From positions 2,818 through 66,817 of the forward strand of contig DEJF01000025.1 in assembly GCA_002353225.1 (NCBI GenBank): 64,000 nt of DNA, read 5' to 3'. Below the pieces are notes generated by a model. That model did no database searches and had not been told where the DNA came from. It worked only from the letters and a program-made list of their open reading frames with translations. Source of the stretch: Prevotella sp. UBA2755 (GTDB lineage Bacteria > Bacteroidota > Bacteroidia > Bacteroidales > Bacteroidaceae). The translations under genes were made by a program, and so were the position numbers. Of this stretch, positions 40,023 through 46,028 are shown in pieces (the first letter of the stretch is position 1; the number at the start of each line of letters is the position of its first letter).

Positions 40023-41045
40023 TTATCGCATCAAGAAACTGAAACGGTCTACGTTCTTCAAGGCGATACCAGCACCCTTTGCCACGGAACGCAATGGATC
40101 CTCTGCGATATGGAACTGGATGTTGATCTTATCGGTAAGACGCTTGTCTAAGCCACGAAGCAATGCACCACCGCCAGAAAGCCAGATACCGTTCTTCACG
40201 ATGTCCGCATACAACTCTGGAGGGGTATTCTCCAAGGCGGAGAGCACGGCGTTCTCTATCTTTGCCACCGTCTTGTCGATACAATGGGCTATCTCCTGAT
40301 AGCATACAGGCACCTCCATAGGCAATGCCGTGATACGGTTAGGACCGTGTACCACATAATCCTCTGGAGCCTCATCACCAAGGTCTGTCAGTGCGGAACC
40401 CACATTGATCTTGATACGCTCAGCCATACGCTCGCTGACCTTCACATTATGCTGACGAGCCATATACTCTTGGATGTCTGCCGTCAGGTCGTCACCTGCA
40501 GTACGGATGGAGTTGTTGCAGACGATACCTCCCAATGAGATAACGGCGATCTCCGTAGAACCACCACCGATGTCGACAATCATATTGCCCTCAGGAGCCT
40601 CTACGTCGATACCAATACCGATAGCGGCAGCCATCGGCTCGAAAATCAGATACACATCACGTCCGTCGGCATGCTCCGCAGAGTCGCGGACTGCACGAAG
40701 TTCCACCTCCGTAGAGCCAGAGGGCACACCAATCACCATACGCAAAGAAGGTGAGAACAAACGGCTGCCCGTATGTACCATCTTAATCAGTCCACGCATC
40801 ATCTGCTCACAAGCAGAGAAGTCGGCAATCACACCATCACGCAATGGACGGATAGTACGGATATTATCATGTGTTTTCTCATACATCATCTTCGCCTCGT
40901 TACCGACGGCAATCATCTTGTCGGTACGGCGGTCGAGAGCAACAACCGACGGCTCGTCCACCACGATCTTATCATCACTGATAATAATCGTGTTAGCCGT
41001 TCCAAGATCCATGGCTATCTCCTGGACAAAACTAAAAAATCCCAT
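40023..41045 (-). CDS. mreB: Rod shape-determining protein MreB
   Basis: DLGTANT, EPMAAAIG, DIGGGSTE and GGGALL motifs. Confidence 0.98.
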   Translation of the reverse strand: MGFFSFVQEIAMDLGTANTIIISDDKIVVDEPSVVALDRRTDKMIAVGNEAKMMYEKTHDNIRTIRPLRDGVIADFSACEQMMRGLIKMVHTGSRLFSPSLRMVIGVPSGSTEVELRAVRDSAEHADGRDVYLIFEPMAAAIGIGIDVEAPEGNMIVDIGGGSTEIAVISLGGIVCNNSIRTAGDDLTADIQEYMARQHNVKVSERMAERIKINVGSALTDLGDEAPEDYVVHGPNRITALPMEVPVCYQEIAHCIDKTVAKIENAVLSALENTPPELYADIVKNGIWLSGGGALLRGLDKRLTDKINIQFHIAEDPLRSVAKGAGIALKNVDRFSFLMR

Positions 41046-41075
41046 ATCTTTTTCTACCTATTTGTTTTGTACTAA

Positions 41076-41669
41076 TTACTTTTCAAACCAATTATGAATA
41101 GCTGTATCATAATGACTGCTGACACCAAAGGCACGAGTAGCGAACTCACGACGCTGCGCCTTAGTGGTCTCCGCACCCTGCTTGTTCAGGATGTCCAGCA
41201 GAATACCGTATTCTGCCTTGGAGGGGACGATAACGACATCATTGAAATTCTTGGCTCCCGCGCGAATCAGTGAAATACCGCCGATATCAATCTTCTCGAT
41301 GATATCTTCCTCAGAGGCACCACTAGCAACGGTCTGCTCGAAAGGATAGAGGTCGACGATTACCAAGTCTATCTCCGGAATCTCATACTGAGCCATCTGC
41401 TCGCGGTCACCCTCGTTCTCACGACGCCCCAGAATACCTCCGAACACTTTCGGATGCAAGGTCTTCACACGACCTCCCAAGATAGAGGGATAAGTGGTTA
41501 CATTCTCCACTTTCTCACACTCGTAGCCCAAACTTTCAATAAAGGTCTGTGTACCACCTGTTGACAAGAACTTCACACCTTCAGCATGCAGCTTCTTCAA
41601 CAACTCTTCCAGCCCATCCTTATGAAACACGGAGATGAGCGCTGTCTTAATCTTCTTTGTATCTGCCAT
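41076..41669 (-). CDS. purH: IMP cyclohydrolase (stand-alone PurH N-terminal/MGS domain)
   Basis: ALISVFHK, STGGT, GGRVKTLHP and IDIGGISLIRAGAKN motifs; ends after 197 aa with no transformylase domain. Confidence 0.88.
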   Translation of the reverse strand: MADTKKIKTALISVFHKDGLEELLKKLHAEGVKFLSTGGTQTFIESLGYECEKVENVTTYPSILGGRVKTLHPKVFGGILGRRENEGDREQMAQYEIPEIDLVIVDLYPFEQTVASGASEEDIIEKIDIGGISLIRAGAKNFNDVVIVPSKAEYGILLDILNKQGAETTKAQRREFATRAFGVSSHYDTAIHNWFEK

Positions 41670-42003
41670 AATATAACGTTATATAAATTTCAATTGGGGA
41701 TGCAAAGGTAGTAAAAAACCACCATACTTCATCATCTTTTAACTAAAAAATTTCTCGCACATAAAAATTAATAATGTATATCAATCCCAAAGGCATCATT
41801 CAATCGGTAACTGAACGTCATTCTGTCGGTAACTGAGTCATGGTCAGTCGGCATGTGAATCCGCAACATTGTCCCTTTGCCACTTTGCCACATTAAGGTG
41901 GCATGATGGAAAAGGGATGTTTTTTTTGAATCTTCCAACTTTTTCATCATTTATTTGCGACTTTCATTTTTATTCCCTATCTTTGCTTATGAAATAGTGA
42001 ATC

Positions 42004-42033
42004 ATGTCAAACCCTTTAAATGTTGAAATGCCT
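42004..42033 (+). repeat. 30-bp direct repeat, copy 1
   Basis: ATGTCAAACCCTTTAAATGTTGAAATGCCT; 29/30 identical to 42828-42857. Confidence 0.92.
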
Positions 42034-42034
42034 T

Positions 42035-42057
42035 AGGAGTGCTAGCACTCTTTTTTT
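42035..42057 (+). terminator. Intrinsic terminator right after repeat copy 1
   Basis: AGGAGTG-CTAG-CACTCTT followed by a T run. Confidence 0.6.
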
Positions 42058-42100
42058 GTTTCCTCTATTTCTTTGTTTTTGCGAAATTTCTATTGAAACA

Positions 42101-42132
42101 TTTGCAACTTTCACTTTTTCTTTCTATCTTTG
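42101..42132 (+). promoter_or_regulatory. Sigma-A promoter of the TA operon
   Basis: TTTG (42101-42104)-N20-TATCTTTG (42125-42132). Confidence 0.7.
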
Positions 42133-42179
42133 CCCTCGGAGTGGGAAGGTTCTGCTCTGACAGAAGAAGCGTTATGTTT

Positions 42180-42476
42180 ATGAACACAGAGCAAATGACA
42201 CAGATGATAGCCGAGTATTTCAAGACACAACCAGTCTTGAAAGCATGGATTTTTGGCTCATATGCGCGTGGTGAGGAGACTGAAAGCAGTGATGTGGACA
42301 TACTTGTGATCCTTGATTATTCACAACCTATAGGATTGAAATTCTTTGGAATGTATGAAGATTTAAAGGAACTTTTAGGCCGTCCTGTCGATTTGGTTTC
42401 AGATCGGACTTTAGCCCCTTTCGCTCGTGCCAGCGTTGAACGTGATAAAAAACTTGTTTATGAGAGAGTCGCTTAG
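42180..42476 (+). CDS. Minimal nucleotidyltransferase (MntA-type antitoxin)
   Basis: FGSYARGEETESSDVD = GS-X10-DXD; LLGRPVDLV; overlaps the downstream HEPN gene. Confidence 0.92.
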   Translation: MNTEQMTQMIAEYFKTQPVLKAWIFGSYARGEETESSDVDILVILDYSQPIGLKFFGMYEDLKELLGRPVDLVSDRTLAPFARASVERDKKLVYERVA

Positions 42477-42828
42477 AGATCGTGAAAGGTTGGAACACAT
42501 GCTCTCTGCCATAGGTCGCATACTCCGTTATACAAATGGGAAAACATTTGAAGATCTTACGGCAGACGATATGATGTATTATGCTGTAGTGAAGAATATC
42601 GAAATCATTGGTGAGGCAGCCAATATGCTTACAGTTGAGTTTACTGAACAACATCCTCAAACACCTTGGAAGCAGGTTAGAGGTATGCGCAATTACATAG
42701 TTCATGAATATTTTCAGATTGATGATGTGGTTGTATGGGATGTTGTAACAAACAATCTTTCAGAACTCAAGCAACAAATAGAATCGTATCTCGCTGAAAC
42801 CAATTGGGCAAAGTGGGTACAACAATAA
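42460..42828 (+). CDS. HEPN/DUF86 ribonuclease toxin (HepT-type)
   Basis: IEIIGEAA...PWKQVRGMRNYIVHEY = R-X4-H-X-Y motif. Confidence 0.92.
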   Translation: MRESLRDRERLEHMLSAIGRILRYTNGKTFEDLTADDMMYYAVVKNIEIIGEAANMLTVEFTEQHPQTPWKQVRGMRNYIVHEYFQIDDVVVWDVVTNNLSELKQQIESYLAETNWAKWVQQ

Positions 42829-42857
42829 TGTCAAACCCTTTAAATGCTGAAATGCCT
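42828..42857 (+). repeat. 30-bp direct repeat, copy 2
   Basis: ATGTCAAACCCTTTAAATGCTGAAATGCCT; starts on the last base of the toxin stop codon. Confidence 0.92.
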
Positions 42858-42962
42858 ATGGGCTGAGATTACTTTACATGGACATATAGGATGAACATCC
42901 ACTATACCCCACATATTGTAGACGTAATTCTGTTCACTTTTTTTATTCAAAGTAAAGATAAG

Positions 42963-45900
42963 ATGAAATTGTGTAATATAAAACAAGTTTTGTTGTTTGT
43001 TGCGCTGACTTTTTCTGTGAAAGCCTCCGCCTATGATTTTATGGTCGACAAAGTGCAATATACAATAATTAGCACTGAACCTTATTTAGAAGTTAAAGTC
43101 GTTGGAGGAACAACAGGTACTTTACATATCCCTGCAGAAGTTGAATATAAGGGTCTGAATTTCAAAGTACGCTATATTGACGGGCATGCTTTTGAAAACA
43201 AGTGGGGATCAGAACACGACATATGGGAACTTACGATAGATGAAGGTGTTTATAGCATTGGTGCATGGGCTTTTGTAAATAACTATAATTTAAATAAAGT
43301 GTCTTTGCCTAAAGACATAATAATACATGAATATGCATTCGGAGGTTGTTCTGGACTGGAAACGTTTAAATTCCCTGAATCTGTTTCAGAATTAAATGAA
43401 GGTATCCTTGCAGAATGTGCCAATTTGAATTCTGTGGAATTACCCTCTGGATTGAAGATAATACCCAAAGATTTGCTAAACGGATGTAGTAACTTAAATA
43501 CAATGGAAATACCAAATTCAGTCGTTTCCATTGGTGATTATTCTCTTTCTAGAACAGGTTTTTCTGAAATTAACATACCTGAGTCTGTGGAAACCATAGG
43601 TAGAAATGCCTTTGCAGGATCCGCTCTGAAGACTATAACTATTCCCAATTTAGTCACTAGTATTAGTGCTTATACTTTTCTATCTTGTAAGAACTTAGAA
43701 TCAATTATTATCCCAAATACTATAACTGAAATTGAAGGGAGTGCTTTTTACGGATGTAGCAATTTAGAAAATATTAATCTACCAGAAGGAATTACGAAAA
43801 TAAGTGGATCAACATTTAAGGATTGTTATAGTTTGAAGTCCATTGTCATTCCAAGTAAAGTTACAACTATACAAAATAATGCTTTTGAGGGGTGCACTAA
43901 ACTTGAGTCTGTAAATATTCCAAGTTCTGTAAAAGAAATATATTCTGGCGCTTTCTACTATTGCAGTAATTTGCAGACAATCAATTTACCCGAATCCCTT
44001 GAGAAGATTGGGGATAAAGCATTTGCAAAATCTGGTCTAACATCGATTTGCTTTCCTAATTCATTAAAAAATATTGGTGAATCAGTTTTTGCTGAATGTG
44101 ATGATCTCACCAGTGTTGTCTCGCGCATGGAGGAACCTTGTACCATAGAGAACGAAAACTGTTTTGACAATGTGGCATATTTACTTATAAAATTGACGGT
44201 TCCGCCTTTAACCGCAGAAAAATATAATGAGAGTTATGCTTGGCATAAGTTCAAAAATATAATAGAAAAACCTCATGACGAAAACGATAACCCGATAGTC
44301 ATATCAGTACAAGACGCATCTAGTGAATATGGTGACAAACTTCCAAAATTCCAAATAACATCGGAAGGGGCTATACTTGATGGTACTCCGGAGATTATAT
44401 GCGAAGCAACAGAAAACTCACAAGTAGGAACGTATGATATTATTGTCAAGCCAGGTTCTGTTAAGAACTTTAATGCAACCTATGTAAATGGTAAACTAAC
44501 CATCACTAAGGCTCCTTTGACAATTACAGCCAAGGACTATACCATCAAGCAAGGTGAGGAACTGCCAACCTTTGAGGTAACCTACGAGGGCTTCAAGAAT
44601 AATGAGACAGAGGATGTATTGACTAAGAAACCCACGATCGCAACAACGGCAACATCTGCCAGTGAGCCTGGTGAATATAATATCACCGCTTCTGACGCTG
44701 AGGCAACGAACTATGAGATTGGTTATGTAAATGGAAAGCTTACGATTGGAACTTCCAATATTATTTCCAAAGGTGTCTATGCGCTTGGTTCTGGTAATAT
44801 GGCCACTGGTAGCCCCAGCAATCTGACCTATTTCGATTATAATACAGGAAAGGCAACTCCTAATGCTTTCGAGGTTAATAACGGTGGTATGAGTCTTGGT
44901 ATGACAGCCAATGACATCTTAAAGTATGGTAAGAAGATTTATATCGTCGTAGACGGCGAGCACACAGTTTTTGTTACTGATGCAAATCTGAAACTTCTTC
45001 ACAAAATTGACATGACCTCTGCTGACATGTTAGGTGAGGCTGGCGGTGTAAGTCCTCGTCGTATCACTGCTGATGGTCCCAATATCTATGTATCCACCTA
45101 TGGTGGTTATGTTGCTGCTATCGATACCCTTAATTTCTCATTGGTCAAGAAGTATAAGGTTGGTTCCTATCCTGAGGGCTTAATAGTAGATAACGGTTAT
45201 CTGTATGTGGCAAACTCTGATTATGGCTATGGTAATGCTTCTATCTCAAAAGTCGATTTGAATTCTGGTGCCGACACACCTATTACTGACGAGAATATCC
45301 GTAACCCTCAAGAGATTGTCATTGCCGGTTCGGACATCTACTTCCTGGATCTTGGACAATACGGTACAGAACCTCCCTATGCACAAGAGAACGCTGGTGT
45401 CTATTGCATCTCAGGTGGCAAGGTGACGAAAGTCGTTGCTGACGCTACAGGTTGGGCTATATCCAGCCCTAATATCTACACCTACAATGCACCTTATTCC
45501 TATGGTGATCCGAAGCCTGTAACCTACAATATCTATAATGTCCAGACAAAAGAGTTGGAATCATTCACTCCCAGTGATATTGAAAGTCCTGCAACCATGT
45601 GTATCGATCCTGTTCAAGGGTTGTTGTATATCGCCTCCTATCATATGACAACCTCTGAGTGGGGAACATTTCCCGACTACACATCAAATGGTTATGTGAA
45701 TTATTATGACCTTTCCACGATGAATAAGATTGGTTCGTTTGATTGTGGTATAGGTCCACGGCGCATCGGAGTCAATTTGGGCACCGATTATATCTTGGGC
45801 GATGCCAATGGTGACGAACAAGTGAATGTGACGGACATCGTGGCAACGGTGAACTACATCATGAACAAGCCGTCTACAGACTTTAACTTCGAAGCTGCTG

Positions 45901-46028
45901 ATGTGAACTGTGATGGCGAAGTAAATGTGACGGACATCGTGGCAATGGTGAACATCATCATGAAAGACGGTACGCAGAATGCACGTGAAGTCATGAGTGT
46001 CCTGCGTAGGAGCGGATTTATATTCTGA
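42963..46028 (+). CDS. Secreted BspA-type LRR protein with 2 MBG-like domains, a YncE/BtuG-like beta-propeller and a C-terminal dockerin
   Basis: Signal peptide (SVKASA); 23-aa IPxSVTxIxxxAFxGCxxLxSI repeats; two YVNGKLTI modules; propeller; GDANGDEQVNVTD / DVNCDGEVNVTD duplicated Ca-binding loops. Confidence 0.9.
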   Translation: MKLCNIKQVLLFVALTFSVKASAYDFMVDKVQYTIISTEPYLEVKVVGGTTGTLHIPAEVEYKGLNFKVRYIDGHAFENKWGSEHDIWELTIDEGVYSIGAWAFVNNYNLNKVSLPKDIIIHEYAFGGCSGLETFKFPESVSELNEGILAECANLNSVELPSGLKIIPKDLLNGCSNLNTMEIPNSVVSIGDYSLSRTGFSEINIPESVETIGRNAFAGSALKTITIPNLVTSISAYTFLSCKNLESIIIPNTITEIEGSAFYGCSNLENINLPEGITKISGSTFKDCYSLKSIVIPSKVTTIQNNAFEGCTKLESVNIPSSVKEIYSGAFYYCSNLQTINLPESLEKIGDKAFAKSGLTSICFPNSLKNIGESVFAECDDLTSVVSRMEEPCTIENENCFDNVAYLLIKLTVPPLTAEKYNESYAWHKFKNIIEKPHDENDNPIVISVQDASSEYGDKLPKFQITSEGAILDGTPEIICEATENSQVGTYDIIVKPGSVKNFNATYVNGKLTITKAPLTITAKDYTIKQGEELPTFEVTYEGFKNNETEDVLTKKPTIATTATSASEPGEYNITASDAEATNYEIGYVNGKLTIGTSNIISKGVYALGSGNMATGSPSNLTYFDYNTGKATPNAFEVNNGGMSLGMTANDILKYGKKIYIVVDGEHTVFVTDANLKLLHKIDMTSADMLGEAGGVSPRRITADGPNIYVSTYGGYVAAIDTLNFSLVKKYKVGSYPEGLIVDNGYLYVANSDYGYGNASISKVDLNSGADTPITDENIRNPQEIVIAGSDIYFLDLGQYGTEPPYAQENAGVYCISGGKVTKVVADATGWAISSPNIYTYNAPYSYGDPKPVTYNIYNVQTKELESFTPSDIESPATMCIDPVQGLLYIASYHMTTSEWGTFPDYTSNGYVNYYDLSTMNKIGSFDCGIGPRRIGVNLGTDYILGDANGDEQVNVTDIVATVNYIMNKPSTDFNFEAADVNCDGEVNVTDIVAMVNIIMKDGTQNAREVMSVLRRSGFIF

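Follow-up and report, generated by a model that had tools for sequence, protein, structure and literature searches.

The window, as we call the whole stretch analysed, comprises 64,000 nucleotides of contig DEJF01000025.1 of Prevotella sp. UBA2755 (assembly GCA_002353225.1, here G000; positions 2,818 to 66,817, forward strand). Between positions 41953 and 46028 it carries two promoters, a direct repeat in two copies (R1 and R2), a terminator-like hairpin (X), a toxin-antitoxin (TA) pair of the MNT-HEPN type, a shortened RNA leader, and a bspA gene for a surface protein of 1024 aa. As shown in Table 1, P1 lies 14 nt in front of R1, X lies 40 nt in front of P2, and the likely start codon of bspA, chosen from the position of the ATG behind the leader in other copies, is situated about 95 nt 3' of R2. 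The TAnnTTTG box, a motif named from Bacteroides promoters, was taken by us as the mark of a Bacteroidetes-type promoter.

Table 1 Features between positions 41953 and 46028 of the window.
Feature	Position	Strand	Basis and remarks
P1, Bacteroidetes-type promoter, original leader promoter	41953..41986	+	Sequence reading; TTTG ... TAtcTTTG at 41978-41985
R1, stub with only the first 34 nt of the leader	42000..42033	+	32/34 identical to R2
X, terminator-like hairpin	42035..42059 (hairpin 42035-42052, then T run)	+	7-bp stem, -7.0 kcal/mol, z -1.41
P2, promoter of the TA operon	42100..42133	+	Sequence reading; 28/34 identical to P1
MNT, MntA-like minimal nucleotidyltransferase antitoxin	42174 or 42180..42476	+	Pfam, motifs
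HepT-like HEPN RNase toxin	42460..42828	+	Pfam HepT-like; Rx4H; stop inside R2
R2, 5' end of the resident leader	42824..42857	+	Repeat of R1
Mini-ORF ATG GGC TGA within the invariant core TGCCTATGGGCTGAGA	42858..42866	+	Same nine bases in most copies of the genus
Decayed short leader variant	42824..42947	+	5' module (42824-42903) followed directly by the degenerate terminator part of the 3' end (42904-42947)
BspA-type LRR surface protein gene	42954..46028	+	LRR_5, MBG_2 and dockerin (Pfam); likely start ATG 42954 (MKLCNIKQVLLFVALTFSVKASA)

The antitoxin matched the Pfam families Polbeta (57.4 bits, E 1.7e-15) and NTP_transf_2 (55.3 bits), and the toxin matched HepT-like (100.3 bits, E 7.8e-29). 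The translations contain GSYARG...DVD in MNT and RNYIVH (Rx4H) in the HEPN protein, and the two genes overlap by 17 nt. In the adjacent, overlapping order of MNT and then HEPN, in the GSxxRG...DxD and Rx4H motifs, and in Pfam scores above the cut-off, the pair resembles the type VII HepT/MntA systems. This putative member differs from them in that both NCBIfam equivalog scores (MntA_antitoxin, 56.6 bits; HepT_toxin, 41.7 bits) are under the 60-bit cut-off. A sequence search for a solved relative of HepT at E 0.001 gave none. P2 and the 5' UTR (42100-42176) matched MNT loci of other species at 81-89%; other species share the P2-TA(-R) part of the cassette but not X.

R1 and R2 are identical at 32 of 34 positions (94%) with a spacing of 824 nt, and the toxin stop codon (TAA, 42826-42828) falls within R2. 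When the 28-nt core of the repeat (with Y) was searched with up to 3 mismatches allowed, exactly these two sites were found in the window and none of 100 shuffles matched; the whole assembly, which is 86.6% complete, gave exactly two copies, with none on the reverse strand and none for a control pattern. Among 59 R modules, the closest to R1 was R2, the next best reaching 27 of 34 positions and the median being 24. Alignment therefore shows a recent duplication or homogenisation of R1 and R2, because R2 is the nearest relative of R1 while the copy of the same genome on contig C45 (see below) is quite different. The likeness of P1 to P2 was also considered as evidence of promoter duplication, and this was dropped: other promoters of the genome are only 7-9 mismatches away from P1 or P2, so that most of the likeness is accounted for by the extended promoter consensus of the genus. 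Upstream, this consensus reads ATTTGsnACTTTCA in the genome, about 20 nt before TATCTTTGC.

The R1 and R2 regions folded no better than shuffles (z 0.07 and 0.25), and no inverted repeat was found at R or at the ends of the 824-bp unit. The string GTTGAAC, present in many R copies, fits GTTRRRY, but its third base varies (T, A, G, C). Much of the preliminary description of this locus was confirmed by these analyses, namely a genuine direct repeat at both sites (now 34 nt), its overlap with the toxin stop, the MNT-HEPN pair, the terminator behind R1, the LRR gene behind R2, the lack of attC structure in R, and the lack of an integrase or transposase in the window; its caution that part of the promoter similarity is consensus was likewise right.

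Comparison with other genomes showed that R is, judged by its conservation and position, the first ~34 nt of a conserved structured 5' leader and not an independent recombination site. The genus was searched in 200 and then 400 genomes, with two candidates scored per genome. R2 and the next 50 nt (42824-42903, about 80 nt) were conserved at 73-89% in 55 of the 400 genomes, and the likeness of the window ended sharply at 42903, while among those 55 genomes it extends over about 250 nt. With a full copy as the query, the element was detected in 63 of the 400 genomes sampled from the family, belonging to 15 of 35 genera; family-wide, many copies have the core without this type of R. Copies that no gene abuts (L024, L029, L032, L046, L061, L091, L093, and C45) have a TAnnTTTG box 11-25 nt ahead of their start, and the arrangement of P1 and R1 is the same as this promoter-leader junction of TA-free copies. 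At 20 loci from other genera, most copies also stood directly behind such a promoter, with an R-like start (AACC...AAAAC...TGCCTATG).

Alignment of 21 full copies (mean column identity, 76%) gave a consensus fold of 56 pairs in 8 helices. In this fold 97.3% of the cells were paired, compared with 38-44% when the partners were slid by 1-3 columns. Sixteen pairs covaried, with 113 cells changed on both sides against at most 19 cells after sliding and at most 34 in shuffles, and none of 500 shuffles reached the observed number of covarying cells or the score. Three helices swap GGGG/CCCC, CGCC/GGCG, CGGC/GCCG, and similar arms. The folding strand is the gene-sense strand, because G-U pairs are frequent. 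A conserved hairpin followed by a U run forms the 3' end (98.2% paired), and ~35 nt beyond this terminator stands the start codon of a gene for a signal-peptide protein. The genes behind the leader encode BspA LRR_5 proteins, OMP beta-barrels, Big_2, PEGA, and DUF5627 proteins, and many small lipoprotein-like proteins without a family.

Directly after R, most copies of the genus carry the mini-ORF of Table 1. In other genera the letters differ while an ATG, 0-3 codons, and a stop are kept, as in ATG TAA, ATG TAG, ATG AAT TAA, ATG ATA TAA, ATG AGA TAA, and ATG GTA TAG, among others. In 87 rows, in which some loci occur twice, a stop within 3 codons was counted in 63 and a longer ORF in 7; the pattern was missed in 17, most of which show the same feature on reading. 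A rough control with 18 copies, which included some mis-picked ATGs, gave a stop within 3 codons in 16 copies in the frame of the ATG compared with 7 and 2 in the other frames. These counts point to a conserved minimal ORF that is putatively translated. Since no amino acid is conserved in it, it would sense translation as such and not one amino acid.

The arms of the terminator are the partners of helices 2-4 in the consensus fold, and minimum free energy structures of single copies took the closed or the terminator form. This layout is that of an attenuator, and the fold predicts a transcription attenuator that responds to translation or to a factor. The leader is like attenuators and riboswitch-like leaders with short upstream ORFs in its promoter-proximal conserved structure, its putatively competing terminator, its 5' tiny ORF, and its fixed distance to the start codon; unlike known families of this kind, it has no match in Rfam 15 (0 matches at E up to 1 in 41000-44000, and none on the element in 5 full-copy loci). 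No description of this element was found in the literature. The available text of PMC5737381 and PMC8040213 names other Prevotella motifs only, and the supplements of these two papers may list the element. By its alignments, the leader is a widespread and previously uncatalogued candidate structured RNA ahead of surface-protein genes in rumen Prevotella-like bacteria, and together with its mini-ORF it is a more notable result than its junction with TA genes. Should this appearance be borne out, a dominant lineage of the rumen and gut would have a new candidate regulatory RNA for its cell-surface proteins, one that is large and well supported, and the unusual minimal ORF would make a translation-sensing mechanism directly testable.

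In the own genome of the window, nhmmer with the full-copy profile found one full copy (C45:26624-26871), with a promoter in front of it and a gene for a 992-aa LRR-type protein behind it. The order on C45:26087-29890 is a DUF2442-like gene of 83 aa, 285 nt, the promoter, the leader, and the gene for the LRR-type protein. In the window, nhmmer matched only model positions 4-87, at 42822-42903, and what follows is a degenerate 3' end of the leader (ATACCCC...GTAGACGTAATTCTGTTCACTTTTTTT). The leader of the window thus jumps from 42903 to this end and lacks the central ~130 nt; no stable terminator hairpin forms in the remnant (-1.3 kcal/mol). A similar, non-identical internal deletion was found in G076 (L034), and short variants or stubs with variable ends are frequent (L034, L019, L042, L050, L068, L076, L077, L080, L083, and L089). 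After R, L042, L050, and L077 share a second type of sequence (AAGTACAYCGGGATRAGG...), which is perhaps another leader core on the same 5' module. At L058 (G080:C8, 9976-15830), an IS4-type DDE transposase gene (DUF4372 and DDE_Tnp_1) lies between a full leader and a BspA gene of 1408 aa.

The junction of a TA pair with R recurs in other genomes. Of 60 distinct R copies from the window's genus, 31 are preceded by an ORF on the same strand, 60 aa or longer, whose end falls 14-58 nt before the ATG of the mini-ORF, either inside R or a few codons ahead of it; in 21 the nearest such ORF was 75-393 nt off, and in 8 none was present in the DNA examined. Pfam domains of TA type were found in the abutting gene or its partner in 26 of the 31 cases and fell into six kinds: HepT or HEPN with MNT (12), DUF4160/DUF2442 (7), PIN (2), RelE/ParE (2), PemK (2, one of them at 23.0 bits against a cut-off of 23.1), and Zeta (1). 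The DUF4160/DUF2442 pairs are presumably TA-like. Four abutting genes belonged to no TA family (L088, L057, L067, and the gene for a GNAT protein in L075), and L087 was left out of the Pfam scan. Among the distant cases, broken HEPN or PIN genes run up to R at L050, L068, L096, L058, and L066. Each TA pair has its own promoter, and the toxin ORFs often enter R and stop there (tails NNV* and NNVEP*). These counts show a real and recurrent junction, in which the joining at R looks systematic. About 15 R copies lie behind a promoter without a TA gene. MNT/HEPN was found upstream in only 2 of the 20 copies from other genera, so that the association with TA genes belongs to one lineage and not to the leader as such.

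The elements are solitary, with one strong copy per context in 20 stretches of 10-20 kb, and at most TA-R loci there is no second R upstream. A stub together with a further copy was found only in G149, G309, and G257. On G149:C1, a gene-end remnant precedes a 58-nt R stub and a terminator hairpin; then come a promoter, the MNT and HepT genes, and an R that heads a partial leader. On the alignment, this full R differs clearly from the stub. On G309:C149, MNT and a truncated HEPN gene are followed first by a 48-nt stub and a terminator, and then by a promoter, the DUF4160 and DUF2442-like genes, and R. From TGTTGAACCC to AGAAATAG there is no difference between its two R copies, and a 38-nt second repeat (a terminator) follows each. 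The layout of stub, terminator, promoter, TA genes, and R is therefore shared by the window with two other species. G257:C72 carries two 5' modules in tandem with no cargo. At 7 or more further loci, an R-only stub behind TA genes gives way to unrelated sequence after 45 to 100 nt, and stub end points in general vary (after 43, 52, 60 nt, and more).

An upstream gene is common to G175 and G323 (83%); it is followed by MNT-HepT in the former and by antitoxin-PemK in the latter, and the likeness resumes at R for 47 nt. This pair was considered as one site with two cargos, and that reading was rejected: nothing else is in common over 10 kb, which therefore indicates modular reshuffling. Between the shared gene and the differing TA modules, short tandem repeats CTCTCCCTGTTACCTGCCGCCT are present at L045 (G175:C182) and L077 (G323:C38).

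It had been proposed that R is a recombination site through which cassettes are stacked or excised by a trans-acting recombinase in an integron-like way, and we looked for the parts of such a system. A Pfam search of the 53+4 ORFs of the window gave no integrase or transposase. The integron integrase model TIGR02249 had 0 matches over its cut-off in G000, and the five Phage_integrase (tyrosine recombinase) genes of this assembly are all on other contigs, none reaching the cut-off for an integron integrase. A metagenome scan for an empty-site or alternative-cargo allele at the P1-R1 junction returned one contig only, which is 99.4% identical and likewise occupied. Of 24 public runs, all of them DNA-type contigs, 20 contain part of the stretch. 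In the contigs of four runs with partial shares, which are short and break at the repeat, there was neither a joint skipping 42034-42857 nor the back-joint of an 824-bp circle. Through the BspA protein, 45 relatives were obtained and none was a clear orthologue of the locus; the leader was present at 1-2 of these 45 loci, and an all-against-all comparison of flanks gave no pair of loci alike on both sides.

Chromosomal integron cassette arrays, with attC sites and IntI, are rich in TA cassettes that have their own promoters. An attC site is an imperfect inverted repeat that forms a hairpin with R''/L'' and L'/R' boxes. The locus resembles such arrays, as far as the available accounts of them go, in having a TA module with its own promoter beside a conserved, structured, strand-specific sequence, stop codons inside the conserved site, and direct repeats flanking one module. 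It differs from integrons as outlined in the available text of PMC5737381 (IntI, attC, arrays) in having no IntI, no attC-type hairpin at R, and no tandem cassette array; instead, it follows the promoter-terminator-start codon logic of an RNA leader. Membership among strict integrons was rejected on these three grounds. An insertion sequence or transposon with target duplication was rejected as well, with no transposase in the window and no inverted repeats at the unit ends. In Bacteroidales, rAID-1 combines a XerD-family recombinase with gene arrays that have repetitive intergenic sequences, and its authors drew the comparison with integrons (bioRxiv 10.1101/471110, available part). The locus is like rAID-1, as presented there, in its order Bacteroidales and in a repeated intergenic sequence before genes for small secreted proteins, and differs in having no adjacent recombinase, no array, and no immunity-gene content seen here. 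Since the window contains neither a XerD-family recombinase nor a gene array, membership in rAID-1 was rejected.

The preliminary proposal thus survives in part. A non-chance repeat does bound a self-contained TA module, and it is the head of a leader, not a free-standing recombination site. Copies with different cargo do exist in other genomes, with only two copies in the own genome. The stacking of cassettes is contradicted by the 20 contexts, up to 20 kb long, in which the element stands alone, and the integron-like recombinase and the empty site did not materialise. At this locus the strict integron-like model fails, with two copies only and no empty site or circle seen, and a weaker version stays alive through R-like copies with other cargo in other species.

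Taken together, these findings suggest that the TA pair is nested in the 5' end of a leader: the ancestral state would have been P1-leader-bspA, and a TA module would have entered it via R. We consider this reading probable. A full leader of ~250 nt would have started 11-25 nt behind its promoter, carried a tiny ORF (ATG, 0-3 codons, stop), folded into several helices, the outer ones in competition with an intrinsic terminator hairpin, and ended ~35 nt before the start codon of the secreted or surface protein. The MNT/HepT operon, consisting of terminator X, P2, and the two genes, now lies inside the 5' end of this leader, whose first 34 nt remain on both sides. Entry may have occurred by R-R recombination, in which an incoming TA-R unit met the P-R leader already in place, through homology or with the help of an unknown enzyme, and the leader core would have decayed after it. 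More generally, TA genes may be joined to R by homologous recombination over 34-60 nt, by an unknown site-specific enzyme, or through repeated selection for zero spacing. At present, P1 would give only a ~55-nt transcript ended by X. P2 would drive mntA-hepT. With neither core nor terminator hairpin left in the leader remnant, transcription from P2 probably extends into bspA; the surface protein would therefore be expressed from an autoregulated TA promoter. We infer the insertion from the anatomy alone, because no empty site, no alternative cargo at the exact locus, and no circle were seen.

That R is instead a dedicated recombination site, at which a trans-acting recombinase captures or exchanges TA cassettes as in an integron without arrays, would explain why TA genes of all six Pfam kinds lie within a few codons of R, why toxin ORFs often stop inside it with NNV(EP)* tails, and why R stands on both sides of a TA module in three species. 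The resumption of likeness at R between G175 and G323 behind different TA cargo fits this reading as well. However, in these two genomes the likeness does not go beyond 47 nt of R and the upstream gene, each of the 20 contexts has a solitary element, R has neither an inverted-repeat core nor a hairpin, and a second R is absent upstream of most TA-R loci, with stub ends that vary. With no recombinase in or near the window and no integron integrase in the genome, we regard a dedicated site as unlikely.

The divergence of the stub and the full R in G149 fits a juxtaposition of two different leaders better than an insertion with duplication. Because stub ends vary and partial leaders are common, R1 could be what a deletion has left of an upstream leader-gene unit; the locus would then derive from a tandem of P1-leader-geneA-X and P2-TA-leader-bspA, from which most of leader A and gene A were lost. 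The frequent decay of leaders, including the internal deletion in the window itself, and the fact that X is not conserved with other TA cassettes favour such a history. It requires, however, two adjacent and nearly identical leaders of a rare R variant (32/34, with 27/34 as the next best), although the C45 copy is quite different, and more events than a single insertion, which makes it quite unlikely in our judgement. A further proposal, that R belongs functionally to the TA operons as a 3' UTR element for processing or stabilisation and that the leader core joined it secondarily, could draw on the R-only stubs that remain attached to TA genes where the rest of the leader is absent and on the many copies across the family whose core lacks this type of R. 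Yet ~15 R copies follow a promoter without any TA gene, and in other genera the R-like start lies directly behind promoters; we hold this proposal to be very unlikely.

The nesting of the TA pair in the leader can be set in a wider frame. The leader would be a family-wide attenuator RNA with a mini-ORF close to a bare start and stop, and in one lineage R would serve as the preferred joint for the capture of TA modules of at least six kinds, so that the leader receives transcription from stress-responsive, autoregulated TA promoters and a variable surface-protein locus is guarded by its TA pair. As a whole, this wider proposal is doubtful. If capture at R is true, it would be a new cassette mechanism, either independent of a recombinase or as yet undescribed. 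Current views of TA module movement do not account for the repeated fusion of unrelated TA operons to one exact point of a leader, and the TA-R fusions offer a natural system in which to ask whether these modules spread by short common sequences and not by the enzymes of dedicated mobile elements.

The rest of the window is occupied by housekeeping genes, among them mreBCD, the genes for PBP2, rodA, dnaE, and tonB-exbBD. A purH-like gene at 41076-41669 (minus strand) encodes only 197 aa, comprising the IMP cyclohydrolase part (MGS-like) and, of the AICARFT profile, positions 1-58; a complete bifunctional PurH has ~500 aa. The mreB gene follows this short gene after 30 nt. Upstream of P1, two 19-nt direct repeats separated by 22 nt lie at 41796-41836 (TCATTCAATCGGTAACTGA and TCATTCTGTCGGTAACTGA). 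A 44-nt stretch at 41858-41901 contains the palindrome TGCCAC-ATTAAG-GTGGCA and had five matches of 85-100% in four other genomes of the genus (G147, G034 twice, G135, and G174); it is possibly an operator or a small dispersed repeat.
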